23,076 bases of DNA from a phage, in assembly GCA_025289735.1 (NCBI GenBank), contig GCA_025289735.1_4764.2; one strand, 5' to 3'. Of the stretch, positions 2,995 through 23,066 are shown piece after piece. The notes beneath the pieces are model-generated. The model saw nothing but the letters and a program-made list of their open reading frames with translations. It had not been told where the DNA came from and did not search any database. A program made the position numbers and the translations under genes. How positions within the stretch are numbered: position 1 is the stretch's first letter; each line of letters starts with the position of its first letter.

Positions 2995-3002
2995 TATAAA
3001 TA
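2995..3002 (+). promoter_or_regulatory. T4-type late promoter (TATAAATA) for gene 34
   Basis: Exact TATAAATA about 28 nt upstream of the gp34 ATG, followed by AAGGAG RBS. Matches the gp55/gp33-dependent late promoter consensus. Confidence 0.65.
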
Positions 3003-3030: not shown

Positions 3031-6000
3031 ATGGCAGATTTTTCTCAACATTTCAAGGCCACATTTGGCTTTGACGCTGGTAATGAAAAGGTCGTCAATG
3101 TAGCATTGGCTGATAAGAATGTCAACACCGATGCGGTCAACGTTGAATTTTTCAATTACCATAATGGTATTACTCAGTATGACACAACTCGCGGTTATGA
3201 TCAATACGGCACTACAATCTATCAAAACCGTCCGTATTATGCAAAAGAAGATATCGCAAAACCAGCAGGTGACTTTGACCCGACTAAATGGCAAGCACTG
3301 CGCACGGACCCACGTTGGGATTATGTTGCAGCAACTTCCGGCGATACTCCTTTAAAGTCCGGTGACTATATCGCAGCGGACTGTCAGTTTGCAAACTTGA
3401 CATTCTCAATGCCTACTAATCCTGTAGAGGGCGACACTATAACAGTAAAAGATATCGGTGGCAAGTGCGGTGTTAATGAGTTATCGTTCCTTTCGGTTGG
3501 TCATGAGTTCTATCATAATGGTGTGGTAAACAACCGCAAATGGTACTGTACTACCCCTTATGCAATGAACTACTTCATTTTTGTTCGCAATCGCTGGCAC
3601 GTTTACCAGACGGGAACGGAGCCACGCGGGGTATATGCACAACCATCTATCGACCCGATCCAGATGCAAAACGGTGATCAGGTATTTCGTCGTAGTTCGT
3701 TGGGTAATATTACCTTAGTGCTTCCTAAGTTTGCCAACAATGGCGACATGATCCAGACTACAGACCTTGACGGATTAACCGCAACCAACCACGTTACGGT
3801 TAAAGTTCATGAGCACGCAGAAGAACAATCAATTGGCACGTCCGGTCTAAAAGAGATTATCGGTAAGCGTAGCGGTCATGGTATATTCATCTTTGACAAG
3901 ACGGAAAACTTATGGCGTTTGTGGGATGGTGATCAGTCTGTTCGTCTTAAACCGATCATCGATGACACTCGCTTATCCCCTAATAGCTATGTTGCAGTAT
4001 TTGGTGATCGTGATGTTACCTTGACTTTACCGACCAATGTCGAGTCGGGTGATCGCATTCAAGTTTCTATGCAGTATATGCACGGAAACCAGACTTGCCG
4101 AATCATTACCTCAGAAGAGGATACAAAAATCCTTATGCAGAAAAACATGGTTCAGTTTCCTAAGCGTAGCGAGTACCCATTCAATGGGACCGATACATGG
4201 ACGGGAGTGTCTGAATTGTCTTTCAACGCTGCAAATGATTATGTACCTTATCTGGAGTTCTCTTATTCAGAAGGTGATGATGGTAAGAAATACTGGCTGG
4301 TGGCACATGCTCACCCGATTGTAGAACGAGTAGATCCGACTCGTAAAGATCGTGTTGGTGTTATTGCGCTTGCTACCCAAGATGAAACAAACAAAAACCA
4401 TGAAGATAATCCTAGCGACGAAGTTGCGGTGACTCCAAAGGTTCTGGCTAACAAAACAGCCAACGAAACTCGACGCGGTATTGCTCGCATTGCAACTCAA
4501 GCGGAAACGCATCAAGATACTGGTTCCAGCTTCCTGGATGATGTTATCGTTACACCTAAAAAGTTAAATGACTGTGTTGCTACCGAAGACCGTCGTGGTG
4601 TGATGGAAATTGCAACTCAACATGAAACCAACGAAGGTTTAGACGATACTCGCGCAATCACTCCTAAGAAGTTAGAAGAGCGTCGAGCGTCAGAGGATCT
4701 TGCTGGTATCGCTGAAATTGTTCAGGTAGGCGGTAGTGCTGCCGCTCGACGTGGCGAAGCTGGTACAGGGATCTATAACATCAACGACCATGCTAAAATC
4801 GTTACTCCGCAAAACATCAACGAAGTTAAGGCGACCGAAACTTCCCGTGGTGTTGGGTATCTGGCAACTGACGCGGAAGTGCAAGGGGCTACAGAATCAA
4901 CCCCGCAAGATGCTTTACTAATCACGACTCGCACGCTAACGAAACGTACTGCTACCGAATCGCGTACTGGTATCGCTGAAATTGCAACTCAGGAAGAAAC
5001 AAACTTAGGTCAAAGTGATAACCATATCATCACGCCTAAAAAGCTGCATACTCGCCGCGCAACGGAAACTTTACATGGTTTAGCAGAAATTGCAACTCAA
5101 GAAGAGTTTGACGCAGGTCGTGACGATGCTCGCATTTCTACCCCATTGAAGATTAAAACCTTCTTTGAGAATGCACAGCGTTTGAAAGTAGACCCGACTC
5201 AGGGGCTTAACCTTACGGGTGACTTGTGGCAAGGTATCATGATCAGCGGTCTTGATGCAACCGAAGACACAAAAGGTGTCGCTAAAGTTGCTACTACTCA
5301 GCTTACGGATGTTGGTCAAGATGATACTACAATCATCACTCCTAAAAAGCTGCAAGGCAAAAAGGCCACCGAAGGTAAAGAAGGTATTATCCGAGTTGGT
5401 ACTCAAGCCGAAACCGTGGCTGGTGCACTGGCTAATGTAGCAATTTCTCCGAAGAACTTCAAATATGTTGTTCAGACAGAGGATACATGGAAAGCAACCG
5501 AAGCGCGTCGTGGTTTCTTGAAAGTTGCTACTCAGGAAAACTGTTTTGTTGGTGATAATCTGCAAGGTTCTACTCAAGAACTAGGAAACTACCAGCATGA
5601 CGGAATTGCTGTTACCCCGAAAGGATTAAACTACGCACTTGCTAATTTCTTACCTAAGATGGCAACCGCTCAGAATAGTTTGAAATTGGGTAACGTAGAG
5701 GCCGCTAAATGGGCGCGTAGAGACATTGACCAGACCATAGAGAGCAATTACACGTTTAATAAAAAAGTTAACGTGAAGGGCGATTTAGAGTGCTTAAAAT
5801 CAGGTTCCTTTGAAACTCTGTCTGTGACTAAGAACTCGACCGATGTTCCGAGTAATGGTCATCTGGTGTTGGGTGAGCGTGGAGTTGACGGTCACACCGG
5901 AATTACTCTGCATGGCACAACCGCATCGGAAGGCATGAAAAACTCTTGGTCTATTATCGTTGGTGGTACGGGAACAGCGCAAGTTGTTGATAGTGATGCT

Positions 6001-6771
6001 ATCGCTTTCGGTAAAATCAATGATGGTGGAGTCGTTGAGCATTACGCCTTTGCTATGAAACACAATGGCGACGCGACAGCATATAGAGACTTTATTGCAG
6101 GTCGTAACCTGTATGCGAAACAAGGCGGTTTATACATTGTTGACCAGTCTAATCCGGCAATGACTCGTTCCCCAGATGGTATGCTGAATATCGGTCACGG
6201 TGGAAGTGTTAACATCAAGGCAGGTCATCAAACGTTAACTACAGAGATCGCCGGACAGAAATATCAGATCGTACACGCAGGAAACGCTGACGAAGTTCTT
6301 AACCGTCAGTTTGTTAAGAATGCTGGCGATACAATGGTCGGTAAGCTGACTATGGATAATGCGCCTATTGTTTCTGTTAAGCATGAAGCTAGCGCGGCAA
6401 CCGCTCCGGCAATCAGCAACATCGGTTTCTGGAATATGCGCGTTACTACCCAGAACATCAAAGAAACTTATCCAGAGAAGAAAAACGGTACTCTGATGCA
6501 ATGGGGTACTGACGCGGACGGGCTTACCCAGCTTTGGTCCCCCGATGGTACTCATAAACATTATATCCGTTCCGGTACTGGTGGTCAATGGACCGCATGG
6601 GGTGAAATTTACACCAAACAGAATAAGCCTACCGCTCAGGAAATCGGGGCAGTAGTTGCAGAAGGTGGTTTAATGAACTCTATGACGGTTCGTGATTGGA
6701 TCAAAGTTGGTAATGTTAAAATCATCGCCAATAATCTGACTCGTACCGTAGATTTTATCTGGGAAGACTAA
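3031..6771 (+). CDS. 34: long tail fiber proximal subunit gp34
   Basis: 1246 aa (T4 gp34 is about 1289 aa). Shared motifs include VNVALAD, PKPAG.F, W.ALRTD, GD.I...DIGGK.GVN, LWRL.DGD, QFPKRSEYP, ELSFN...YVP.LEF, the repeated ITPKKL...ATE..G.AEIATQ units and C-terminal RD.I.VGNV.I. Confidence 0.9.
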   Translation: MADFSQHFKATFGFDAGNEKVVNVALADKNVNTDAVNVEFFNYHNGITQYDTTRGYDQYGTTIYQNRPYYAKEDIAKPAGDFDPTKWQALRTDPRWDYVAATSGDTPLKSGDYIAADCQFANLTFSMPTNPVEGDTITVKDIGGKCGVNELSFLSVGHEFYHNGVVNNRKWYCTTPYAMNYFIFVRNRWHVYQTGTEPRGVYAQPSIDPIQMQNGDQVFRRSSLGNITLVLPKFANNGDMIQTTDLDGLTATNHVTVKVHEHAEEQSIGTSGLKEIIGKRSGHGIFIFDKTENLWRLWDGDQSVRLKPIIDDTRLSPNSYVAVFGDRDVTLTLPTNVESGDRIQVSMQYMHGNQTCRIITSEEDTKILMQKNMVQFPKRSEYPFNGTDTWTGVSELSFNAANDYVPYLEFSYSEGDDGKKYWLVAHAHPIVERVDPTRKDRVGVIALATQDETNKNHEDNPSDEVAVTPKVLANKTANETRRGIARIATQAETHQDTGSSFLDDVIVTPKKLNDCVATEDRRGVMEIATQHETNEGLDDTRAITPKKLEERRASEDLAGIAEIVQVGGSAAARRGEAGTGIYNINDHAKIVTPQNINEVKATETSRGVGYLATDAEVQGATESTPQDALLITTRTLTKRTATESRTGIAEIATQEETNLGQSDNHIITPKKLHTRRATETLHGLAEIATQEEFDAGRDDARISTPLKIKTFFENAQRLKVDPTQGLNLTGDLWQGIMISGLDATEDTKGVAKVATTQLTDVGQDDTTIITPKKLQGKKATEGKEGIIRVGTQAETVAGALANVAISPKNFKYVVQTEDTWKATEARRGFLKVATQENCFVGDNLQGSTQELGNYQHDGIAVTPKGLNYALANFLPKMATAQNSLKLGNVEAAKWARRDIDQTIESNYTFNKKVNVKGDLECLKSGSFETLSVTKNSTDVPSNGHLVLGERGVDGHTGITLHGTTASEGMKNSWSIIVGGTGTAQVVDSDAIAFGKINDGGVVEHYAFAMKHNGDATAYRDFIAGRNLYAKQGGLYIVDQSNPAMTRSPDGMLNIGHGGSVNIKAGHQTLTTEIAGQKYQIVHAGNADEVLNRQFVKNAGDTMVGKLTMDNAPIVSVKHEASAATAPAISNIGFWNMRVTTQNIKETYPEKKNGTLMQWGTDADGLTQLWSPDGTHKHYIRSGTGGQWTAWGEIYTKQNKPTAQEIGAVVAEGGLMNSMTVRDWIKVGNVKIIANNLTRTVDFIWED
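4369..5566 (+). repeat. intragenic tandem degenerate repeats within gp34
   Basis: At least seven copies of the unit TPKKL-(x)-ATE-(x)-G-(x)-EIATQ-E are visible in the translation. Boundaries approximate. Confidence 0.7.
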
Positions 6772-8731: not shown

Positions 8732-9388
8732 ATGAAATTGATTGCACTTTGTGGTAAAAAGCGAGTAGGAAAAGACACTGCCGCGTTAATCATTGATGGA
8801 CATAGTTATCAACTGGCAGCACCGATCAAAGAAATATTGTGCGAATGTCAACCAGACTTAGGTCTGACTTATCTTGACTTTGACGGGTTAGGGCGTGACA
8901 GAGAATCCGATCTAGGTATTGATACCTATACCGCGCATAAGTGGTTTATTCAGTGTCTGCTTATGCTAGATTCGAAGTATGGCGGTAGTTCCTTTACTTG
9001 TGATCGTCTGGCTGAGATTTACAAGGTCGTTAATGAGATTGGCGAAAAACATAATAACGTCTGGTCTATTCGTCTCATGTTAACCACTCTCGGTACTGAT
9101 ATAATGGTTAACTTGATCAATCCGCTTTATTGGTGTAATCTCTTCGTTAATGAGTTTATGAAGCGCAAAAATGAAGAAGGTTATTTTGTAGTGGTTGATG
9201 TGCGTCAGCCTATTGAAATTGCTCTCGTGCGTGCTATGGGTGCTAAGGTGTTGCATATTCAGCGTGATACTGGTATTGTATCGACTCACTCCACCGAAAA
9301 AGGAATTTTGCCTATTGACGGTGAAACAGTTATCATAAATAATGGCACATTAGAAGAATTTGAAAGCGCGATTCTCGCGAACATTTAA
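8732..9388 (+). CDS. 1: deoxynucleoside monophosphate kinase
   Basis: 218 aa; clear similarity to T4 gp1: MKLI.L.G.KR.GKDT, YQLA.PIK, DRE.DLG, WSIR.LM..LGTD..VN, ARAMGA.V.HI.R, THSTE.G.LPI.DG..VI.N.G.LEE. Confidence 0.9.
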   Translation: MKLIALCGKKRVGKDTAALIIDGHSYQLAAPIKEILCECQPDLGLTYLDFDGLGRDRESDLGIDTYTAHKWFIQCLLMLDSKYGGSSFTCDRLAEIYKVVNEIGEKHNNVWSIRLMLTTLGTDIMVNLINPLYWCNLFVNEFMKRKNEEGYFVVVDVRQPIEIALVRAMGAKVLHIQRDTGIVSTHSTEKGILPIDGETVIINNGTLEEFESAILANI

Positions 9389-9414: not shown

Positions 9415-9681
9415 GTGAATATGTCCAATCAACATGAACAAATGATTAATGTCCTGAAAGTACGTCTGTTTGACACTCAAGAAAAGGCCGCATTCTTAGA
9501 AGGCCAACTGAAAGATCGTGAGCGTGTATTGATGGAACTGGTACGCATTCTGGGTATTCAGCCAGACGAAAACGGGACTGTTTCCCTTGATGCTATCGTC
9601 GAAGAAGTGAAAGCACTTCTCCCTAAAGACGAAGCCGCAGAAGCCGCAGAAGAGGAAGTAGAACTGATCACGGAGGCTTGA
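9415..9681 (+). CDS. 57A: gp57A-like tail fiber assembly chaperone (small acidic coiled-coil protein)
   Basis: 88 aa, acidic, heptad-like, between gene 1 and the 57B-like gene; size and neighbourhood match T4 57A. Sequence-level match not verified. Confidence 0.5.
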   Translation: MNMSNQHEQMINVLKVRLFDTQEKAAFLEGQLKDRERVLMELVRILGIQPDENGTVSLDAIVEEVKALLPKDEAAEAAEEEVELITEA

Positions 9682-9683
9682 TT

Positions 9684-10148
9684 ATGACCCCGTTTAGAGA
9701 ATCCGTTAAAGGTACATATGCGGCGGTTAAATTCACTGAGGATACACTAGACCGCATTGAAAAATTGCAGGAGTTCTACGATCTTCCTAATGCCGTTCCT
9801 CGTGATAAACTGCATAGCACTATCTTATATTCTCGTGTCTATGTTCCGTTTATCCCAGAAGAAGGGGAGAAGTTCTTAGGCTCTCTGTGTCATCTGAAAG
9901 TGTTTGAAACACAATCCGGTACTAATGCGCTTGTGCTGGCATTTGAAAGCGACTACATGCAATTCAGACACGATATCGGCACTGCTTTAGGTGCGACGTG
10001 GGATTATCCTGAATATGTACCGCATATCACGCTTTCTTATGATGTTGGTGCGCGTAAATTTGGCACTGACCTAGAGTTCGATTTAGAGATTGTCCGATCT
10101 CATGAGTATGTCGAAGATCTAGACCTGGAGTGGACGACCAAACTGTAA
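9684..10148 (+). CDS. acb1: 2H phosphoesterase, 57B/Acb1-like (anti-CBASS cyclic-oligonucleotide phosphodiesterase candidate)
   Basis: 154 aa from ATG at 9684 (the track start 9678 is TTG; GGAGG RBS 7 nt upstream of 9684). Two H-x-T-x motifs (HSTILY, HITLSY) typical of 2H phosphoesterases; T4 57B/Acb1 is about 152 aa and adjacent to 57A and gene 1. Confidence 0.65.
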   Translation: MTPFRESVKGTYAAVKFTEDTLDRIEKLQEFYDLPNAVPRDKLHSTILYSRVYVPFIPEEGEKFLGSLCHLKVFETQSGTNALVLAFESDYMQFRHDIGTALGATWDYPEYVPHITLSYDVGARKFGTDLEFDLEIVRSHEYVEDLDLEWTTKL

Positions 10149-11366: not shown

Positions 11367-11587
11367 GTAGCATAAAATATTTTGCTTTCTTGTGTTTTAT
11401 GATGTTCTTCACATTCTTAGCATGTGTTTTCTTTACCTGGCTTGCTCATGTTGATAATGCAACCGGACCGTTTTACTTCTTCTGTGTATTGTCTGTGTTG
11501 ACTGGTGCTCTTGTTACGTGGATGATTCGAGATTGTTACGGAATGTATAAGTTTGAAAAGACTCGACCGAAATGGGGCAAACGATGA
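11363..11587 (+). CDS. small membrane protein (74 aa)
   Basis: Hydrophobic ORF, ATG at 11363 (track start 11348 is TTG). Confidence 0.55.
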   Translation: MSSIKYFAFLCFMMFFTFLACVFFTWLAHVDNATGPFYFFCVLSVLTGALVTWMIRDCYGMYKFEKTRPKWGKR

Positions 11588-11766
11588 AATTATTTGCATG
11601 GCTAATTATTTTAAATGTAATTGTTAAGACCTTTCTCGCTGGTCTGATGATGGCGCATAGCACCGAACCAGAAGAAGCATTAACGTATTTTGTTGCTTAT
11701 GTGTTGGGATTCTTGCTTACTGCGTGGATGTGTGATGAATATCGAAGAATTGAGGTAAAACCATGA
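11584..11766 (+). CDS. small membrane protein (60 aa)
   Basis: ATG at 11584 overlapping the upstream stop (ATGA); hydrophobic. Confidence 0.5.
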   Translation: MKLFAWLIILNVIVKTFLAGLMMAHSTEPEEALTYFVAYVLGFLLTAWMCDEYRRIEVKP

Positions 11767-11981
11767 AAATGACTTTTTATATCTTAGCAAGTATCATGCT
11801 TGTGATCTCTTCTGCCTTATTTGCATTTCTTACCGTTTGGGGGATCTGTACTGATGCGAAGCCGTGGGATATCGTAGAAAATACGGTTATGTTTATTATT
11901 AGTGTCATGTGTCTTTTTGATGCATTTAACTCTATCAAGGAAGAAGATCAAAAACGTCGCGAGAGAAAGCGATATAAATAA
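11763..11981 (+). CDS. small membrane protein (72 aa) with basic C-terminal tail
   Basis: Start overlaps the upstream stop; two hydrophobic segments then KEEDQKRRERKRYK. Confidence 0.55.
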   Translation: MKMTFYILASIMLVISSALFAFLTVWGICTDAKPWDIVENTVMFIISVMCLFDAFNSIKEEDQKRRERKRYK

Positions 11982-16017: not shown

Positions 16018-16593
16018 ATGGCTTTTAAATATTGGGATGAATCCCTACAAAACGAGATAAAACTTAGATATGCTCATATAGAGGGTATCTTATATTATAG
16101 AGTCGATAGTAAAGCTATCAAAGGACGACCATTAGGGAGTAGATATAAACACGGCGATTTAGTTAAAGTCAGAACAAATAAAGATGGTCATCTTAGATTT
16201 TGGCATAGTAGAGATGACGGTCTTCCTAGAGTTCATCTATTCGTGCATAGGGTTGTTTGGTTTCTAGAACATGGGACGCAAGTTAGATTAATTGATCATA
16301 TTGACGGTAATCCTGCGAATAACAATCCTCCAAATCTTAGGGAGGCAACCGACGCGCAAAATCAACATAATAGAAAGAAGAAGTCTAAAAAGTTTTCTAG
16401 TGTGTATAAGGGTGTTAGTAAGTCTAACAGGAAGGATTTGCGTAAGAAATGGAGAGCTAGTATAATGGTCAACCTAAAAAGACATGTTCTTGGACAATAT
16501 GACACAGAAATCGAAGCTGCAATCGCTTATGATAATGCAGCTAGGAAATTTTATGGAGAATATGCTCTATTGAATTTCCCAGATCCAAAATAA
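16018..16593 (+). CDS. HNH homing endonuclease with C-terminal AP2 DNA-binding domain
   Basis: HNH core HRVVWFLEHGTQVRLIDHIDGNPANNNPPNLREATDAQNQHN; AP2-like YKGVS...WRASI...GQYDTEIEAAIAYDNAARKFYG. AGA/AGG/ATA-rich codon usage contrasts with neighbouring genes. Confidence 0.8.
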   Translation: MAFKYWDESLQNEIKLRYAHIEGILYYRVDSKAIKGRPLGSRYKHGDLVKVRTNKDGHLRFWHSRDDGLPRVHLFVHRVVWFLEHGTQVRLIDHIDGNPANNNPPNLREATDAQNQHNRKKKSKKFSSVYKGVSKSNRKDLRKKWRASIMVNLKRHVLGQYDTEIEAAIAYDNAARKFYGEYALLNFPDPK

Positions 16594-17282: not shown

Positions 17283-17699
17283 ATGGAATTTAAAGCAATT
17301 CAAATCATGAAAGGTGAGCATAAAGGTACTATTATTGGTGGACACTTCGCGCCTATGATTCTGGTATCCGAACCGAAAGCACTGATCGGCGCTAAAGTAA
17401 TTGTTAGTAAAACTTTCGCAGAAGACCATGTGATCACCGCAGAAGACGTCGATTCGCTGGCACTGCACACAACTAGCTTCCGTCCGGTGATTGTAGATAA
17501 TGGTGCTCCTGTTGTCGAAGGAGGTCAGCACGCGAATATCAATGTGATGAGTCGCGATCTTCTTCTTGATGCGGTTGCTAATCCTGATAAGTATCCGCAA
17601 CTAACCATTCGCGTTAGCGGATATGCCGTAAGATTCAATAGTCTGACTCCAGACCAACAACGTGATGTTATTTCGCGCACCTTTACGGAAGCAATGTAA
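17283..17699 (+). CDS. grcA: autonomous glycyl radical cofactor (GrcA/YfiD-like)
   Basis: 138 aa; C-terminal [60 protein letters not shown] is near-identical to E. coli GrcA and contains the RVSGY glycyl-radical motif. AAGAGGTGA RBS. Confidence 0.85.
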
Positions 17700-17705
17700 A
17701 TTTTT

Positions 17706-17738
17706 AAGCCAATCCGAAAGGGTTGGCTTTATTTTTAT
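17706..17738 (+). terminator. rho-independent terminator after the grcA-like gene
   Basis: AGCCAATCC-GAAA-GGGTTGGCT followed by TTATTTTTAT. Confidence 0.75.
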
Positions 17739-17746
17739 GAGGTGAT

Positions 17747-18277
17747 ATGATGATTAAAAGATATTGTGATGACCATCCGGTCGAAGAGTGGAAAGTGATT
17801 GAGGATCTTTATCCGTTAACTCATTTTGAGATTAGTTCTCATGGTAGGGTTAGAAACTCCATAACAGGAAAATACTTGTCTATTGTAGACACGAAAGATT
17901 ATACTAAAGTTTCTTTTAAACATCGCCCCAGCAAAACACATAGAACGTTAAACATGCATAGAATGATGGCGGTTGCGTTTATTCCGAATCCAAACAACTA
18001 CCGTGTAGTTAACCATAAGGACGGAAACAAACGAAACTATGATCTTTATAATCTTGAATGGACTACAGACACACGAAATCTTGTTCATGCAAAGGAAGAA
18101 GGATTAAACAAAAATTGGGGCGAGAACCACGGAAACGCAAAACTAACAGATGAACAGGTGAAAGAGATTTTAGATTCTCCGCATATGAAGGGCGTAGAGC
18201 TTGCAAGAAAATATAATGTTTCACCGTCTGCTATTTGTCAGATTCGAAAAGGCGTTCGACGTAACGTAAAATACTAA
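17747..18277 (+). CDS. HNH homing endonuclease (NUMOD4-like N-terminus, HNH_3 core, C-terminal HTH)
   Basis: HFEISSHGRVRN (NUMOD4-like); HRMMAVAFIPNP..VNHKDGNKRNYDLYNLEW (HNH); NAKLTDEQVKEI...ARKYNVSPSAICQIRKG (DNA-binding). Confidence 0.8.
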   Translation: MMIKRYCDDHPVEEWKVIEDLYPLTHFEISSHGRVRNSITGKYLSIVDTKDYTKVSFKHRPSKTHRTLNMHRMMAVAFIPNPNNYRVVNHKDGNKRNYDLYNLEWTTDTRNLVHAKEEGLNKNWGENHGNAKLTDEQVKEILDSPHMKGVELARKYNVSPSAICQIRKGVRRNVKY

Positions 18278-18290
18278 TGAGGGTTTAATT

Positions 18291-18989
18291 ATGCATACAA
18301 TGGTTAAAATGGTCTTCGGATCTCACTTGTACGGCCTTGATACTGAAAATTCAGATAAAGATTATCGTGGTATCTTTGTTCCGACTGCTAAAGAAATTAT
18401 CTTAGGATCGATGAAAGAACACTATGACCAAAGCACTAGCGGTCAAGGTATCAAGAACACCAAAGACGATATTGATGTTAATATGTTCAGTCTAAAACGG
18501 TTTATCAATCTGGCATGTAAAGGCGATATCGGCGCTATTGACATGGTGCACGCGCCTAGTAACATGTTGATTGAATCCTCCAGAGAATGGGAATACATCC
18601 GAACACATCGCGATAAATTCTATCATGTTGGGATGTGGGGTTTGTCTGGCTATCTCAAAAAGCAGGTAGCCAAATCTGAAAAGTATTTCAGTAACTGGAA
18701 AGATCTTTCTCATGCTCTGCGTGTTGGTTATCAGCTACTTGAAATCTATCAGACAGGTGATCTACAATTCCCGCTCGCGCGACGTTCTTCTATTTTAGCG
18801 TGTAAGTTAGGAGAAAGAACCTTTGATAATGTGCGGGAAGAATTGAAAGATCTCTACGAGCGTGTTAAACTCGCGCGTGAAGAGGCAAAGAAAAACGGTA
18901 TGCCGGAAGAACCAGATGTTGACTTTTGGAAAGATTTATTAGAATATATTCATCTGACCGTTGTTCTGGAACACTATACCCGTGGTTAG
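18291..18989 (+). CDS. Pol-beta superfamily nucleotidyltransferase (RlaP/YcgL-like), function unknown
   Basis: 232 aa; N-terminal VFGSHLYGLDTENSDKDYRGIF fits the hG[GS]-x(9-13)-DxD nucleotidyltransferase signature. Confidence 0.6.
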   Translation: MHTMVKMVFGSHLYGLDTENSDKDYRGIFVPTAKEIILGSMKEHYDQSTSGQGIKNTKDDIDVNMFSLKRFINLACKGDIGAIDMVHAPSNMLIESSREWEYIRTHRDKFYHVGMWGLSGYLKKQVAKSEKYFSNWKDLSHALRVGYQLLEIYQTGDLQFPLARRSSILACKLGERTFDNVREELKDLYERVKLAREEAKKNGMPEEPDVDFWKDLLEYIHLTVVLEHYTRG

Positions 18990-19010
18990 TTAATATAGGA
19001 GATTAAGAAA

Positions 19011-19205
19011 ATGAAAGTTTATACCAATAGCAATAAAGGACAAGATATTACGCCAGGAAAGATGTATGATTTTACCCCGACACGAGACTACGAAAATCCA
19101 CCGACAATCGGTTACATCAAAGATGATATAGGTTATCGTATTACGATCCTTCTTGATGGTGGATGTTCTCATCTTCGCGGTGATAAATGGGAGTTAGTAC
19201 CATGA
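19011..19205 (+). CDS. small protein, paralog family member A (64 aa)
   Basis: Shares Y.(F/Y)TP...GYI.DD.G..I.I.L...C.HL.G..W.L with the next two ORFs. Confidence 0.6.
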   Translation: MKVYTNSNKGQDITPGKMYDFTPTRDYENPPTIGYIKDDIGYRITILLDGGCSHLRGDKWELVP

Positions 19206-19447
19206 TGTATGTGATGACACCTTATAGTAACCGCAAGTATATTACACCAAATACACTGTATGAATATACACCACATGAAAGATTTTCGAATAGTGGTTAT
19301 ATCCGTGATGATAAGGGACACCAGATTTTTATTTGTCTTAAAAATTGTGCACACTTAGACGGTCGAACCTGGACACTGATCGAAGAACCAAAACAACCTG
19401 AGAATAAAGGTCTTTGGAATGTGCTAAAAAAATTCTTGAAAAAGTAG
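19202..19447 (+). CDS. small protein, paralog family member B (81 aa)
   Basis: ATG 19202 overlapping the upstream stop; motif ITPNTLYEYTP...GYIRDDKGHQIFICLKNCAHLDGRTW. Confidence 0.6.
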   Translation: MMYVMTPYSNRKYITPNTLYEYTPHERFSNSGYIRDDKGHQIFICLKNCAHLDGRTWTLIEEPKQPENKGLWNVLKKFLKK

Positions 19448-19476
19448 TTGACAGCATGAAACGGGGGTAGTAATAT
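19448..19476 (+). promoter_or_regulatory. early promoter module copy 6 (TTGACA-17-TAATAT) with inverted repeat over the -10
   Basis: TTGACA 19448-19453; GGGGGTA/TACCCCC inverted repeat (19463-19482); leader ATCGAAACAACAAAGGAG. Near-identical to copy 2. Confidence 0.65.
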
Positions 19477-19507
19477 ACCCCCATCGAAACAACAAAGGAG
19501 TATTAAA

Positions 19508-19843
19508 ATGAGTGTTAAAGAAGTGTTTGTTTATACCGACTATGACGGGTGCGCCTATCTCACTGCTGGAAAACTTTACCGTTGTGAGATTATTCATGGT
19601 ACGCTAGGTCGAATTATGTGCGATCCTATTACAAAATTGTGGAAAAATAATCCTAGTGAGCGAGAAACTCTTATTAACCTAGATCCAGACGGTTGTTCAC
19701 ACTTGGGCTATAGAAAATGGCATATAGTTACACATGATGCTTATGGTATTCATCTTGCTACTAAAGAATTAACTATTGACAAGTTCAAGTTTAAAGAAAT
19801 CCCGTTTGTATACTGGCTTCGCAATTTGTTTAAGAAAGGATAA
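19508..19843 (+). CDS. small protein, paralog family member C (111 aa)
   Basis: Contains DPDGCSHLGYRKWHIV, matching the C.HL.G..W motif of the two upstream paralogs, with an extended C-terminus. Confidence 0.6.
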   Translation: MSVKEVFVYTDYDGCAYLTAGKLYRCEIIHGTLGRIMCDPITKLWKNNPSERETLINLDPDGCSHLGYRKWHIVTHDAYGIHLATKELTIDKFKFKEIPFVYWLRNLFKKG

Positions 19844-19847
19844 TAAA

Positions 19848-20270
19848 ATGGAAACAATTAACGTACATGTTCGCCGTAGTAAGCTGCGTAGATTCTTCGA
19901 AACCGAAATGCGCAAAACCAATGCGCAGATCAAAGAAAAGTGTTTGAATGATGGTTATGGTGAGTATATTTTCATTCGCTTTAGTCCGCATATGATCGAC
20001 CGTCTAACCGATCGTCATATCGATGAACATAAGACAATGGAACTATTCAATAAGATAGAAACTCGTTTGCCAGAGATCTTCGACTTCCTGAAAATGGAAG
20101 ACCGACCGAATCGATTAGAAATTACTGACGGTAACATGTGGATCGGGATGACAGTAGATCTAATCGAAGAGGGTAAGCCATATCACGGTCTATGCTGCCG
20201 AATGATTATAGAGAATCCAAAACGACTGGCGGGTAAAATGTCGGCGGTTGTTTTGAAGGTAGACCAATAA
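19848..20270 (+). CDS. regB: RegB sequence-specific endoribonuclease
   Basis: 140 aa from ATG 19848 (the track start 19776 is over-extended). Similar to T4 RegB as recalled: V.IRR.KLRR.FE.E.R..N..I.E, RLEITDGN.W.G.TV, CRM.I.N..RL.GK.S..V.K. Confidence 0.8.
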   Translation: METINVHVRRSKLRRFFETEMRKTNAQIKEKCLNDGYGEYIFIRFSPHMIDRLTDRHIDEHKTMELFNKIETRLPEIFDFLKMEDRPNRLEITDGNMWIGMTVDLIEEGKPYHGLCCRMIIENPKRLAGKMSAVVLKVDQ

Positions 20271-20293
20271 TGGAAATTGGTTAAAAATAATGC

Positions 20294-20322
20294 TTGACTT
20301 TCTGGTGATAGGGCTATATTAT
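20294..20322 (+). promoter_or_regulatory. sigma70-like promoter (TTGACT-17-TATTAT)
   Basis: TTGACT 20294-20299, TATTAT 20317-20322, upstream of the signal-peptide lytic transglycosylase gene. An overlapping TGCTTGA resembles a MotA box but its spacing is off. Confidence 0.45.
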
Positions 20323-20356
20323 GGAATCAGAAAGTTAAGCCAAACAGGAGAAATTA

Positions 20357-20947
20357 ATGTTAAAAGTTCTAAAAGCGATAGTATTGAGTCTGTCACTAGC
20401 CGTTGGTGCTACACACGCATCGACTAGCGCACCGATCAAAAAAGCGCCGATAGACAACTTTACAGCACACCAACTAGATAATTTACATTTCGCCTATCAA
20501 TACGGCGAGCAATTCGAGAAAAGCGGTAAGTTGAAAAAGTACCATCCGAATATTCGCTATAACGGAAAGGGTTTAGGTCACATCCTGGCGGGTATCGCAT
20601 GGCAAGAATCAAGCGCGGGTGCAAACTTAGCACCAAAGAAAAATCATCATGCTTATGGATTATTTCAAAATTACCTTAAAACGGTGAAAGCGAAAAATGC
20701 AAAGCGCGGTGTTAAAATGAGTGATCGCCAGACTATCAACTTTATCATGAATCGCGAGGTTTCTGCATTCTACGCGATGGATGAGTTAGCATACTGGCTG
20801 GATGTTCGAAACGGTAATATCCGACTCGCGCTAGCTTCTTACAATGCTGGATGGAACTATAAAGCCGGGTTAGGCTATGCTGATGACGTACTAAAAAAGG
20901 CTAACCATCTAAAGAGTAAAGGCATTCTTAAGACTAAACGCTATTGA
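20357..20947 (+). CDS. secreted lytic transglycosylase (SLT domain) with Sec signal peptide
   Basis: N-terminal MLKVLKAIVLSLSLAVGATHA-ST signal peptide; SLT motifs AGIAWQESS (catalytic E-S), YGLFQ and ASYNAG. Confidence 0.75.
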   Translation: MLKVLKAIVLSLSLAVGATHASTSAPIKKAPIDNFTAHQLDNLHFAYQYGEQFEKSGKLKKYHPNIRYNGKGLGHILAGIAWQESSAGANLAPKKNHHAYGLFQNYLKTVKAKNAKRGVKMSDRQTINFIMNREVSAFYAMDELAYWLDVRNGNIRLALASYNAGWNYKAGLGYADDVLKKANHLKSKGILKTKRY

Positions 20948-20954
20948 GGAATAT

Positions 20955-21314
20955 ATGAAAAAGTTGACAATAATTGCTATGATTGCTATGATGTTCTCGG
21001 CTGGTGCGCTTGCTAGTAATGAGCGCCCTTATCCAAAGTTTGAATACAAAGGATTTGAGATCAACAAAAAGATCATTAAAACTTTCTGTGATGATGATAA
21101 CATGTGTAGTGATTTTATCGCGCTCGAACTTGATGAAGCATACAAACAAGGTCGAGACGAAAAACGAAAAAATCGAGCGTGGGATCTGAGTATTGCCAGC
21201 TTTGCTAAAACAAAACGCAACCTTTGTGATACTGCCCCTGATAAGCAATTATGCTTTGCTTATCGCGACACACTGTTAAGCCGTTTTATGGCTGGGTTGT
21301 CTTCCCGTGACTAA
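20955..21314 (+). CDS. periplasmic protein with signal peptide (119 aa), unknown function
   Basis: MKKLTIIAMIAMMFSAGALA-SN signal peptide; four Cys in the mature part; directly downstream of the SLT gene. Confidence 0.6.
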   Translation: MKKLTIIAMIAMMFSAGALASNERPYPKFEYKGFEINKKIIKTFCDDDNMCSDFIALELDEAYKQGRDEKRKNRAWDLSIASFAKTKRNLCDTAPDKQLCFAYRDTLLSRFMAGLSSRD

Positions 21315-21329
21315 TGAGAGGTTTATATT

Positions 21330-21785
21330 ATGATTATTGATACTGTAAAGGGCGATCTCATCGCCCTGTTTAAACAAGGAAACGGTCATTTAATTCATGG
21401 TTGTAATTGTTTTCATACTATGGGTGCTGGTATTGCTGCAAAGATCGCGAAAGAGTTCCCGCAAGCGTTAGAGATTGACAAGCAAACTTCTCGCGGTAAG
21501 GTAGAAAAGCTGGGTGGGTTTAGTGTCTGGACGCATCAAGTTAATGGTTATAACTGGTGCGGGGTGAATCTATATACCCAATTCCGACCGGGTCCAAATG
21601 CTGAATATGGTGCTATCCTGAAAGGATTTGAGACTATCAATGATGTTTTTGAAGGTGCTATACAGCCTTTCTATATTCCTAAAATCGGTTGCGGTATCGG
21701 TGGCCTTGAGTGGGAATGTGTAGAAGAGATCATTAATATTGCTACTCCAGACATTAACATTGTGGTGGTTGAATATGACAAATAA
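21330..21785 (+). CDS. macrodomain protein, TARG1/OARD1/DarG-like (putative ADP-ribose hydrolase)
   Basis: 151 aa; GDLIALFKQGNGHLIHGCNCFHTMGAGIAAKIAKEFP and PKIGCGIGGLEWECVEEIINIA...INIVVVEY parallel human TARG1 segments (GDLF..C......AHCIS.DCRMGAGIA..FK..F; MPRIGCGLDRLQWENV..MIEEVF....I.I.VY). Confidence 0.6.
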   Translation: MIIDTVKGDLIALFKQGNGHLIHGCNCFHTMGAGIAAKIAKEFPQALEIDKQTSRGKVEKLGGFSVWTHQVNGYNWCGVNLYTQFRPGPNAEYGAILKGFETINDVFEGAIQPFYIPKIGCGIGGLEWECVEEIINIATPDINIVVVEYDK

Positions 21786-21969
21786 AAATGATCTATATTC
21801 CGGTGATTGGGTGAAACGTCAGTCTGTAGAAAACGTAACTTGTTTTCGTTGTTTCACTGAATACAATATAAAAACCGCTCCTGTTAGTGTTCCAAAGACA
21901 GACGGGTATTATATTAAAGAACCGCATTGCCCTAAATGTAAATGTCGATTATATTGGAGTCATCTATGA
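21775..21969 (+). CDS. small zinc-ribbon protein (64 aa)
   Basis: ATG 21775 (track start over-extended); C-x2-C ... C-x2-C pattern (CFRCF ... CPKCKC). Confidence 0.5.
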   Translation: MTNKNDLYSGDWVKRQSVENVTCFRCFTEYNIKTAPVSVPKTDGYYIKEPHCPKCKCRLYWSHL

Positions 21970-22184
21970 AGAAGCCGAATACCGCTCACATGAAAGAAAA
22001 CTGCCGATGTGTTAGATGTGGTTGGCCTATTATATTCACTTGCTGTAACGACGATATGCAGCGTTTACCGTGGGGAATGTGGGATTGGTGGATGTATTGC
22101 AGCAATAAAGGTTGTGACCATCATGAAGGTGAAGGAGTCTTTCAGGAAACACCTGATTGGGTGGAGGTGATAGAAAATGCTTGA
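21966..22184 (+). CDS. small Cys/His/Trp-rich protein (72 aa), probable zinc binding
   Basis: ATG 21966 overlapping the upstream stop; CRCVRCGW...CCNDD...CSNKGCDHHEGEG. Confidence 0.5.
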   Translation: MKKPNTAHMKENCRCVRCGWPIIFTCCNDDMQRLPWGMWDWWMYCSNKGCDHHEGEGVFQETPDWVEVIENA

Positions 22185-22470
22185 GACTATCATTAATCTT
22201 GTTGTGTGGACTTTTATTTTCGTTATTGTTATTATGGCTGGTATTGAGATTGTAAAACAATATCTATTGCAATCTCGAAATAAACATGTTGTAGTTGATA
22301 TGGACTCGCAAGGAAATAAACTGATCCGGTTAGAAGATGGTCGGGAATATTGGGTAGGTTATCCAAAGACACTACGCGGATTTATCTTTGCTATGGGTGT
22401 TTGCTTCTTTTTCCTTTGTATCTGGACTTATATCGGTTTAGGTCTTGTTGGATTTTTGGAGATTAATTAA
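22177..22470 (+). CDS. membrane protein (97 aa), two TM helices
   Basis: Hydrophobic N- and C-terminal segments flanking a soluble core; overlaps neighbours by a few nt. Confidence 0.55.
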   Translation: MLETIINLVVWTFIFVIVIMAGIEIVKQYLLQSRNKHVVVDMDSQGNKLIRLEDGREYWVGYPKTLRGFIFAMGVCFFFLCIWTYIGLGLVGFLEIN

Positions 22471-23066
22471 TGGCGCAATTATATTTCTACTATGCATCTA
22501 TGAACGCTGGCAAATCAACTTCCCTGTTACAAAGTGCTTATAACTATACCGAACGTGATATGCGAGTATTAATTCTTAAGCCAGCGATTGATAATCGAGA
22601 TTCAGAAAGTGAAGTCGTTTCCCGAATTGGTCTAAGTGCTCCAGCGATCACATTCACTAAATCAGATGATCTTTTCGATTTGGTTTATCGTGAATCACTA
22701 GGTAAGCGTAGACCAGATCGCTGGCGTCCTGATGCTGTGTTTGTAGACGAAGCCCAATTTATGACTAAAGAGCATGTTTTAGGCTTGTGTGCGCTTGTTG
22801 ATGATGCAAATATCCCTGTACTGTGCTATGGCCTTCGCACTGACTTTCAGGGCAATCTATTTGAAGGATCTGCGGCATTAATGGCATTTGCTGATAAACT
22901 GGTCGAAATGAAGGGTATTTGTCATTGTGGTAAGAAAGCAACAATGGTCCTTCGTGTAGATAAAGAGGGTAATGTTATTCGCGATGGTGCTCAAATAGAA
23001 GTTGGTGCAGAGGATAAATATGTTTCTGTGTGCCGTAAACATTTTATTGACGGTACTACCAAATAA
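22470..23066 (+). CDS. tk: thymidine kinase
   Basis: 198 aa; similar to T4 Tk as recalled: YAAMNAGKS.SLL..A.NY.ER.M.VL.LKPAID.RDS..EVVSRIG, VFVDEAQF, YGLRTDF.G.LFEGS..L.A.ADKL.E.K..CHCGKKA. Confidence 0.9.
   Translation: MAQLYFYYASMNAGKSTSLLQSAYNYTERDMRVLILKPAIDNRDSESEVVSRIGLSAPAITFTKSDDLFDLVYRESLGKRRPDRWRPDAVFVDEAQFMTKEHVLGLCALVDDANIPVLCYGLRTDFQGNLFEGSAALMAFADKLVEMKGICHCGKKATMVLRVDKEGNVIRDGAQIEVGAEDKYVSVCRKHFIDGTTK

Follow-up and report, generated by a model that had tools for sequence, protein, structure and literature searches.

Two overlapping genes for zinc-binding-family mini-proteins lie between a macrodomain gene and the thymidine kinase gene of an RB49-like phage

We analyzed two overlapping mini-genes, ORF1 and ORF2, in a 23,076-nucleotide (nt) stretch of phage DNA (contig GCA_025289735.1_4764.2 of assembly GCA_025289735.1), the whole of which is referred to here as the window. 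A preliminary description of this DNA had reported open reading frames (ORFs) of 64 and 72 amino acids (aa) that overlap within positions 21775-22184, and both the coordinates and the lengths were confirmed. It had also placed them upstream of tk, the thymidine kinase gene; they do belong to the same gene string, but they are not directly adjacent to tk, because an ORF for a 97-aa membrane protein (22177-22470) intervenes. As judged from sequence conservation and gene arrangement, both ORFs are genuine, conserved, and translationally coupled genes, and they very probably encode real, zinc-stabilized proteins. The features of the locus are as follows.

21775-21969 (+): ORF1, 64 aa, an ORF read from the sequence, with ATG at 21775 and stop codon at 21967-21969
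21966-22184 (+): ORF2, 72 aa, an ORF read from the sequence, with ATG at 21966 and stop codon at 22182-22184
21966-21969 (+): ORF1/ORF2 overlap, ATGA, 4 nt shared by the start and the stop
21764-21768 (+): GGTGG, a Shine-Dalgarno-like site 6 nt upstream of the start codon of ORF1 and within the 3' end of tk.4
21956-21959 (+): GGAG, a Shine-Dalgarno-like site 6 nt upstream of the start codon of ORF2 and within the 3' end of ORF1
21330-21785 (+): tk.4, gene for a 151-aa macrodomain protein that resembles DarG, immediately 5' of ORF1 (Pfam Macro, E-value (E) 1.3e-6)
22177-22470 (+): ORF3, a 97-aa membrane protein with two transmembrane segments (phrog_16027), between ORF2 and tk
22470-23066 (+): tk, thymidine kinase, the final gene of the cluster (Pfam TK, E 9.6e-52)
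20955-21314 (+): vs
20357-20947 (+): vs.1, SLT-like
20294-20322 (+): candidate early promoter of the sigma-70 type (TTGACT-17-TATTAT), preceded by A-rich sequence, from a consensus scan only

The 3' end of tk.4 shares 11 nt with ORF1, and ORF2 shares 8 nt with ORF3. Because of these overlaps (11, 4, and 8 nt) and the Shine-Dalgarno-like sites, the whole string looks translationally coupled. Longer mechanical forms of the two ORFs, starting at TTG 21739 and ATG 21942, were rejected as unsupported, since the annotation of phage RB49 and the N-termini of homologues fit 64 and 72 aa. The same two genes are annotated in the RefSeq record of RB49, where they are listed as encoding the hypothetical proteins RB49p090 (ORF1) and RB49p089 (ORF2), and both are identical at the protein level to those in the window. 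Positions 21300-22500 showed 97-99.5% identity to Krischvirus phages (RB49, JSE, ECD7, MIZ4, and others), and Krischvirus genomes aligned across the whole window; by its sequence, the source phage is a Krischvirus, an RB49-like phage of the T4 type. Among the loci examined, tblastn matches to ORF3 were confined to Krischvirus. No non-coding RNA or tRNA was found in the window.

Both mini-proteins are unusually rich in cysteine. Cysteine accounted for 7.8% of ORF1 and 8.7% of ORF2 in its 80-aa mechanical form (7/72, or 9.7%, in the 72-aa form), compared with a background of 1.9%; among the + strand ORFs of the window that start with ATG and reach 60 aa, these two ranked highest in cysteine. By tblastn, the ORF1 family was present in 314 phage records and the ORF2 family in 788. 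The nonsynonymous divergence (dN) of ORF2 between the window and RB49 was 0 at a synonymous divergence (dS) of 0.155, and comparison of ORF1 with its rV5-type homologues gave a dN of 0.11-0.16 with dS saturated. With dN/dS far below 1, both genes are under purifying selection.

ORF1 belongs to Pfam family PF23903 (Phage_zn_bind_2), with a score of 83.3 bits against a gathering cutoff of 27 bits (E 1.1e-23) and residues 19-62 aligned to profile positions 2-44 of 44, and to phrog_4864 (E 2.7e-34). A scan of 1.84 billion representative proteins together with a profile search yielded approximately 45 relatives of 45-120 aa, and related loci of the family were sought with three sub-alignments. The protein is basic (isoelectric point (pI) 8.9, net charge +3.6) and carries the motifs CFRC (residues 23-26) and CPKC (52-55), plus C57, so that the paired C-x2-C motifs attributed earlier to both proteins are indeed found in ORF1. 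Residues V21, C23, C26, Y30, P50, C52, and P53 were invariant in 32 homologues, and C55 was kept in more than 90% of them; in a 14-member alignment, all four cysteines (C23, C26, C52, and C55) were invariant.

An AlphaFold2 model of ORF1 built on the family alignment (predicted local distance difference test score (pLDDT) of 80) consists of two short N-terminal helices followed by a three-stranded ribbon (strands 20-23, 29-31, and 60-62), with the CxxC knuckles at turns. Generic zinc-ribbon proteins headed the Foldseek matches of this model in the PDB, every match having E >= 0.54; because all of these values exceed 0.5, we take the structural matches to reflect a generic ribbon shape and not homology. 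The ORF1 family profile found nothing among all PDB chains at E <= 10. The zinc-ribbon-like character of ORF1 is well supported by sequence, and we read it as a probable basic four-cysteine zinc ribbon of the classical type, with C23, C26, C52, and C55 as putative ligands.

A fusion of ORF1 to Sir2, or its derivation from Sir2, was rejected: the gene at tblastn match H59 is a free-standing ORF of 61 aa, and ORF1 shows no sequence similarity to sirtuins. Pfam SIR2 did not match ORF1 at E <= 1, and sirtuins appeared among the Foldseek matches only at E 1.1-2.8. In GenBank record OY978796.1 (Klebsiella phage, 17597-22716), the feature table is out of register, and the annotated coding sequences translate with many stops; the false 'Sir2' label over the 61-aa PF23903 gene (H59) is explained by this misregistered annotation. 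No informative domain fusion was found among the relatives, all of which measured 45-120 aa; a 598-aa protein (P0014) proved to be low-complexity repeat noise.

ORF2 belongs to a different family, PF23895 (Phage_zn_bind; 116.9 bits against a gathering cutoff of 27 bits, E 3.9e-34), in which residues 5-71 align to profile positions 2-68 of 69 and 12/12 aligned members match, and to phrog_2306 (E 3.5e-34). It is acidic (pI 5.2) and Trp-rich, with the motif CxxC...CCN...WDWWMYCSNKGCxxHxGEG and cysteines at C13, C15, C18, C26, C27, C45, and C50. The Trp/His-rich segment pointed out earlier, WGMWDWWMYCSNKGCDHHEGEG, is present at residues 36-57. The paired C-x2-C motifs are not: only one CxxC (C15-C18) is conserved in ORF2, and the other knuckle takes the form C45-x4-C50, with H53 shortly after it. 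Residues C15, C18, C45, C50, and H53 were invariant in 12 family members and C27 was near-invariant. This Cys/His pattern also held in full-length members from 46 viral-contig loci, where C27 (or a neighbouring Cys) was nearly invariant. The family core, WDWWMYCSNKGC.xH.GEG, was strongly conserved across database matches and the 46 loci; C13 and H52 were not conserved.

The AlphaFold2 model of ORF2, likewise built on a family alignment (pLDDT 77), has five strands. Foldseek returned no fold match for it in the PDB and, in BFVD, only members of its own family, including a Sinorhizobium phiM12 protein. We regard ORF2 as a small beta protein, with C15, C18, C45, C50, and H53 as candidate ligands and C27 nearby; it may have a non-ribbon site that uses H53 and C27. 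ORF2 is not T4 Tk.3: Shfl2, SP18, and phiE142 carry both side by side as distinct genes, the T4 reference lacks the ORF2 family between tk.4 and tk, and tblastn with Tk.3 found nothing in the Krischvirus locus. Identity with an Ogr/Delta activator was also rejected, since the spacing C-x2-C-x26-C-x4-C is similar but the 12 members gave no Ogr_Delta Pfam match at E <= 10.

The preliminary term, zinc-ribbon-like mini-proteins, is borne out insofar as both proteins fall into Pfam phage zinc-binding families and the ORF1 model has ribbon topology. Structure prediction, proposed there as a check, agreed with a zinc ribbon for ORF1 and gave a small beta protein without a PDB match for ORF2, and the cysteine pattern turned out to be invariant or nearly so in the homologues of both. 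Treating the two as a pair, on the other hand, did not hold up: their sequences show no relationship, and many phages carry one of them alone; accordingly, paralogy and an obligate pairing were both rejected. Of the roles that the description had offered, inhibitors of host enzymes or transcription factors, the latter found no pointer in the data; the neighbouring genes that recur suggest counter-defence clusters centred on ADP-ribose and NAD instead. Both Pfam families are named only 'Phage zinc binding domain', and NCBIfam and PADLOC hold no model for ORF1 or ORF2. Because identical proteins and both families had already been deposited in public databases, novelty is low, and the finding as such is ordinary.

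An early-region label for ORF1 and ORF2 is plausible from strand, operon structure, the promoter-like site, and the lack of a late motif nearby. The promoter-like sequence at 20294-20322 precedes vs.1 and is the nearest upstream non-coding site of this kind for the string vs.1-vs-tk.4-ORF1-ORF2-ORF3-tk, and the T4 late-promoter motif, TATAAATA, did not occur from 12 kb to the end of the window. A sigma-70 site close to consensus (TTGACA and a TG-extended TATGAT separated by a 17-nt spacer; 11/12 matches) lies within the first codons of vs, at 20964-20992 (+); it may serve tk.4, ORF1, and ORF2 as an internal promoter. For novel ORFs in T4-like phages, co-expression with early genes has generally been predicted (PMC1524935).

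The gene directly upstream of ORF1 gives the locus its context. Tk.4 of the window is 44% identical to T4 Tk.4 and matched the DarG models of PADLOC (E 3.9e-14) and NCBIfam (antitoxin_DarG, E 7.9e-13, below the curated cutoff); among ORF1, ORF2, and Tk.4, the macrodomain of Tk.4 was the sole match to the PADLOC defence-system profiles, as DarG. A 2025 preprint (bioRxiv 10.1101/2025.11.20.689424) reported that knockout of tk.4 sensitised T4 to DarTG2 and that T4 needs Tk.4 to grow on DarTG2 hosts, and it named the protein AdfM, an anti-DarTG2 factor. Although Krischvirus and the rV5-like phages (Vequintavirus) are unrelated, their ORF1 proteins share 75-83% identity, and the rV5-type macrodomain is 66-70% identical to Tk.4 of the window, compared with 37-51% for the other sampled T4-like Tk.4 proteins. 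These identities suggest that the macrodomain gene and ORF1 moved as a linked block between the two phage groups.

Relatives of ORF1 recur near genes for processing ADP-ribose (ADPr). In rV5-like phages, they lie 0.26-0.45 kb downstream of the macrodomain gene, and in Jiaodavirus-like and other T4-like phages just after tk, at most approximately 1.1 kb from the macrodomain gene; a number of the latter carriers also have the ORF2 family upstream of tk. In jumbo phages of the GAP32/BF type, all 14 loci (14/14) showed the order NAMPT ... 2H - ORF1 family - sirtuin - Nudix/cREC ... PIN-PhoH, where the 2H gene is Acb1-like (PF23474, E 6e-16). The PF23903 gene was immediately upstream of the sirtuin gene in 13 of these 14 loci, with one gene inserted in the fourteenth, and in GAP32 the two genes overlap by 4 nt. 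The sirtuins themselves have 1-3 Cys and no CxxC...CxxC zinc module (L018:2707-3504, L023:3204-3995, L024:4624-5415, and L027:4229-5020). This gene order matches the sirtuin-centred neighbourhood of Iyer et al. (PMC9503650, section 3.7.3), in which 2H, cREC, Nudix, and sirtuin domains are assigned to the same network of nicotinamide adenine dinucleotide (NAD+) and ADPr; a search of that paper for zinc terms found no mention of a small zinc-ribbon gene.

Other settings of the ORF1 family were more varied; the HD_4 hydrolase, Dam methylase, and T7 gp5.9-like genes met there are likewise of a counter-defence type. In Mydovirus, the relative follows an HD_4 hydrolase gene, and the macrodomain gene is 4.8 kb off; in Dickeya/Erwinia-type jumbo phages, it precedes a Dam methylase gene, and elsewhere it lies near a T7 gp5.9-like gene. 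On a 257-kb IMG/VR contig (L052, L091), the PF23903 gene stands directly before the Dam methylase gene, approximately 22 kb from a PF23895 gene, and the Dam-side flank is approximately 80% identical to Dickeya phages JA33/JA11/JA13. The jumbo-phage group of this contig and of Dickeya phages JA29 and JA33/JA11 (L043/L044) contains both families, and its PF23903 members carry an extra conserved domain at the N-terminus (ICDETNN...ENNxLN). Genes for HD_4 (RelA/SpoT-type) hydrolases were also observed within approximately 1.3 kb of the Mydovirus-like PF23903 genes and the Dickeya JA29 PF23895 gene (L022:2432-2941, L025, L087, L088, and L043:5495-6079).

The ORF2 family was located between the Tk.4 macrodomain gene and tk in 25/25 sampled T4-like loci, often directly after the macrodomain gene. 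The mobD.1-regB interval of T4 lacks both families and carries tk.3/tk.2/tk.1 instead. Outside T4-like phages, a DUF4326 gene immediately precedes the relatives of ORF2, both on the related 257-kb contig and in jumbo phages JA29/JA33/JA11 of Dickeya, and an HD_4 hydrolase gene lies two genes 3' of the relative in the Dickeya setting. A role in processing the phosphates of ADPr derivatives has been put forward for DUF4326, which also occurs in fusions with Macro, NADAR, and SLOG domains (PMC9503650).

Taken together, we propose that ORF1 and ORF2 would be two independent accessory genes, transcribed with the early vs.1-vs-tk.4-...-tk string and translationally coupled, each encoding a mini-protein of approximately 8 kDa whose fold is predicted to be held together by zinc. 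Neither protein has catalytic motifs, and stoichiometric binding to another macromolecule early in infection would be their most likely mode of action, which would make them accessory host-takeover or counter-defence factors and not core replication or structural proteins. Accessory status is indicated by their patchy distribution across phage groups, their absence from the T4 mobD.1-regB interval, and their movement between phage groups. That both proteins are accessory binders of this kind seems to us a serious possibility, though one that falls somewhat short of probable.

The process touched may be the conflict between phage and host over NAD+ and ADPr, including DarT-type DNA ADP-ribosylation and ADPr-processing modules of sirtuin, 2H, and Nudix proteins, because macrodomain, DUF4326, 2H, sirtuin, and Nudix-cREC genes recur as neighbours. 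In that setting, the mini-proteins could act as inhibitors of a host effector, or as targeting or adaptor modules for the adjacent ADPr-processing enzyme. The gene neighbourhood alone, by guilt by association, suggests this link, and we regard a specific functional connection of ORF1 and ORF2 to ADPr processing as possible but doubtful. A still bolder joint reading would make PF23903 and PF23895 non-catalytic zinc modules that work with ADPr-processing enzymes: the ORF1 ribbon would act in trans with zinc-less phage sirtuins and AdfM-type macrodomains, either as a detached zinc module or as a substrate adaptor, and ORF2 would partner or regulate enzymes of the macrodomain and DUF4326 types. 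As a whole, this reading is improbable.

Several observations weigh against the ADPr/NAD+ interpretation. Relatives of ORF2 also occur in settings without a link to ADPr, namely in the lambdoid nin region by NinX, with a GNAT gene and a CxxCxxCC gene, with ClpP and TGT, and with MuF and DUF2213; similarly, one relative of ORF1 stands beside a serine recombinase gene at the edge of a prophage. Phage early regions are crowded with accessory genes, so guilt by association is weak. The vs-tk interval is an insertion hot spot, and proximity to the macrodomain gene may therefore reflect the slot and not the function. There are also few truly independent lineages: the GAP32/BF-type loci count as one observation because they form a single clade. 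Records of T5-type (Salmonella) phages were absent among the ORF1 tblastn matches, although T5-like phages share the sirtuin clade. Moreover, the structure models are of moderate confidence (pLDDT of 80 for ORF1 and 77 for ORF2), and literature searches on the gene names of either family and on its Pfam and PHROG identifiers found nothing.

Different explanations have to be weighed against this accessory-binder interpretation. The short length of the ORFs and the lack of a function on record would fit chance frames or decaying remnants, but the strong Pfam and PHROG family matches, the hundreds of homologues across several unrelated phage groups with invariant ligands, and the dN and dS values of both genes given above speak against it; this conservation refutes a non-functional origin, to which we give next to no credence. 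Small factors that bind nucleic acids or modulate transcription are a more substantial alternative, in which the ORF1 ribbon, comparable to those of RNA polymerase subunits, TFIIB/TFIIE, and ribosomal proteins, would bind DNA, RNA, or RNA polymerase and alter host or phage expression. The basic character of ORF1 (pI 8.9, net charge +3.6) fits this idea, as does the fact that it shares its strand and its gene string with the early genes, and its best, non-significant structural neighbours are RNA-binding ribosomal ribbons, Rpb12/RpoP, and TFIIE. Those Foldseek matches all have E > 0.5, however, and describe a generic ribbon shape; ORF2 is acidic (pI 5.2), with no helix-turn-helix or other nucleic-acid-binding motif and no Ogr_Delta match at E <= 10 in its 12 members; and no transcription gene was found among the neighbours. 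We consider such a role unlikely. Another candidate identity for ORF2, a Crl-like protein that binds a host sigma factor, arose from a 6-sequence profile whose best PDB match was Crl (4q11, 3rpj; E 0.17), covering residues 15-72 and a common W-x-WWM motif. The match was lost (E > 10) with a 12-sequence profile, Foldseek of the ORF2 model against the PDB returned no Crl, the 12 members gave no Pfam Crl match at E <= 10, and Crl is without a metal site, so that this assignment is effectively refuted and retains only a negligible probability.

ORF1-type ribbons could also be dedicated subunits of the adjacent enzyme, supplying in trans the zinc module missing from the adjacent phage sirtuin or acting as a substrate-targeting adaptor of the macrodomain hydrolase. 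The zinc-less sirtuins of GAP32/BF-type phages would suit the former role, together with the PF23903 gene immediately upstream in 13/14 loci, its 4-nt overlap in GAP32, and the sirtuin zinc modules (SIRT5, SIRT3, and Sir2-Af1/Af2) that account for approximately one in five of the 50 best structural neighbours found for the ORF1 model; for the latter, ORF1 overlaps tk.4 by 11 nt, and the two seem to have been transferred jointly between Krischvirus and rV5-like phages. Yet the profile detected no PDB chain at E <= 10, Pfam SIR2 did not match, and the Foldseek matches were non-significant. No sirtuin gene adjoins the ORF1-family gene in Krischvirus or in most T4-like carriers, the rV5-like sirtuin gene is tens of kilobases off (80 kb vs 134 kb in JEP1), T5-like phages have a sirtuin but their T5-type (Salmonella) records are missing from the ORF1 tblastn matches, and most T4-like macrodomain genes are without an ORF1 neighbour. 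A dedicated subunit is in our view quite unlikely, and the broader interpretation as accessory binders is the one that we retain.

Other features were observed elsewhere in the window. A homologue of the anti-CBASS nuclease Acb1 / T4 57B (PF23474, E 1.5e-51) lies at 9678-10148 (+) and adjoins the dNMP kinase gene (gene 1, 8732-9388). Two HNH homing-endonuclease-like ORFs (HNH_3+AP2 and NUMOD4+HNH_3) flank a 138-aa ORF with a glycyl-radical domain (16018-16593, 17283-17699, and 17747-18277, +), and an ORF with a CYTH domain lies beside rnh (1214-1810, -). A 1246-aa ORF at 3031-6771 (+) has no Pfam match and is probably a long tail-fibre gene; the T4 late-promoter motif occurs ahead of it, at 2995-3002. 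A second pair of 64- and 72-aa ORFs with a 4-nt overlap (11572-11766 and 11763-11981, +) was dismissed as a coincidence of length, since it encodes hydrophobic membrane mini-proteins without a Cys motif.

The useful outcome is a testable lead, as the two families recur by enzymes that remove or process ADPr in phage groups that otherwise share little. If the interpretation holds, they would be new components of phage counter-defence against bacterial immunity based on NAD+ and ADPr, and a function would be assigned to two widespread families in several hundred sequenced phage genomes. Under the bolder joint reading, judged improbable above, the two families together would make up a layer of small proteins in NAD+/ADPr counter-defence that has so far been overlooked, directed for instance against DNA ADP-ribosylation of the DarT type.

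Within their own families, both proteins are ordinary members. ORF1 is a full-length member of PF23903 / PHROG 4864 (RB49p090, rV5 ORF206, and GAP32_118A), 100% identical to the RB49 protein, and shares with the family the four Cys, Y30, and the A-P, K-E-P-x-C-P-x-C-x-C, and Y-x-S elements; some members have an extra N-terminal domain (ICDETNN...ENNxLN) that is absent from ORF1, which is otherwise indistinguishable from them. ORF2 is a full-length member of PF23895 / PHROG 2306 (RB49p089, 'RB32 ORF111c', and Sinorhizobium phiM12 S5MVY9) and indistinguishable from it, sharing the signature C-x2-C...C-N...[DY]W.YCSNK[GT]C.xH.GE and the position between tk.4 and tk seen in other T4-like phages. 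The nearest structural neighbours of the ORF1 model are classical zinc ribbons (ribosomal eL-type, Rpb12/RpoP, TFIIE, and the sirtuin zinc module). Unlike them, ORF1 is free-standing, has conserved loop motifs of its own, and lacks significant structural (best E 0.54) or sequence similarity; like them, it is predicted to have two CxxC knuckles approximately 25 residues apart at beta-hairpin turns and a three-stranded sheet.

The closest parallels in setting are the small counter-defence proteins encoded beside ADPr-processing or NAD+ enzymes, such as T4 AdfM/Tk.4, Acb1, and NAMPT-based NAD+ salvage. In the profile and structure searches made here, ORF1 and ORF2 showed no sequence or fold relation to any characterised anti-defence protein, and the link to these systems is one of neighbourhood only. 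Like those proteins, ORF1 and ORF2 are small, patchily distributed, and apparently accessory, with signs of horizontal transfer, and they reside in the same gene clusters.

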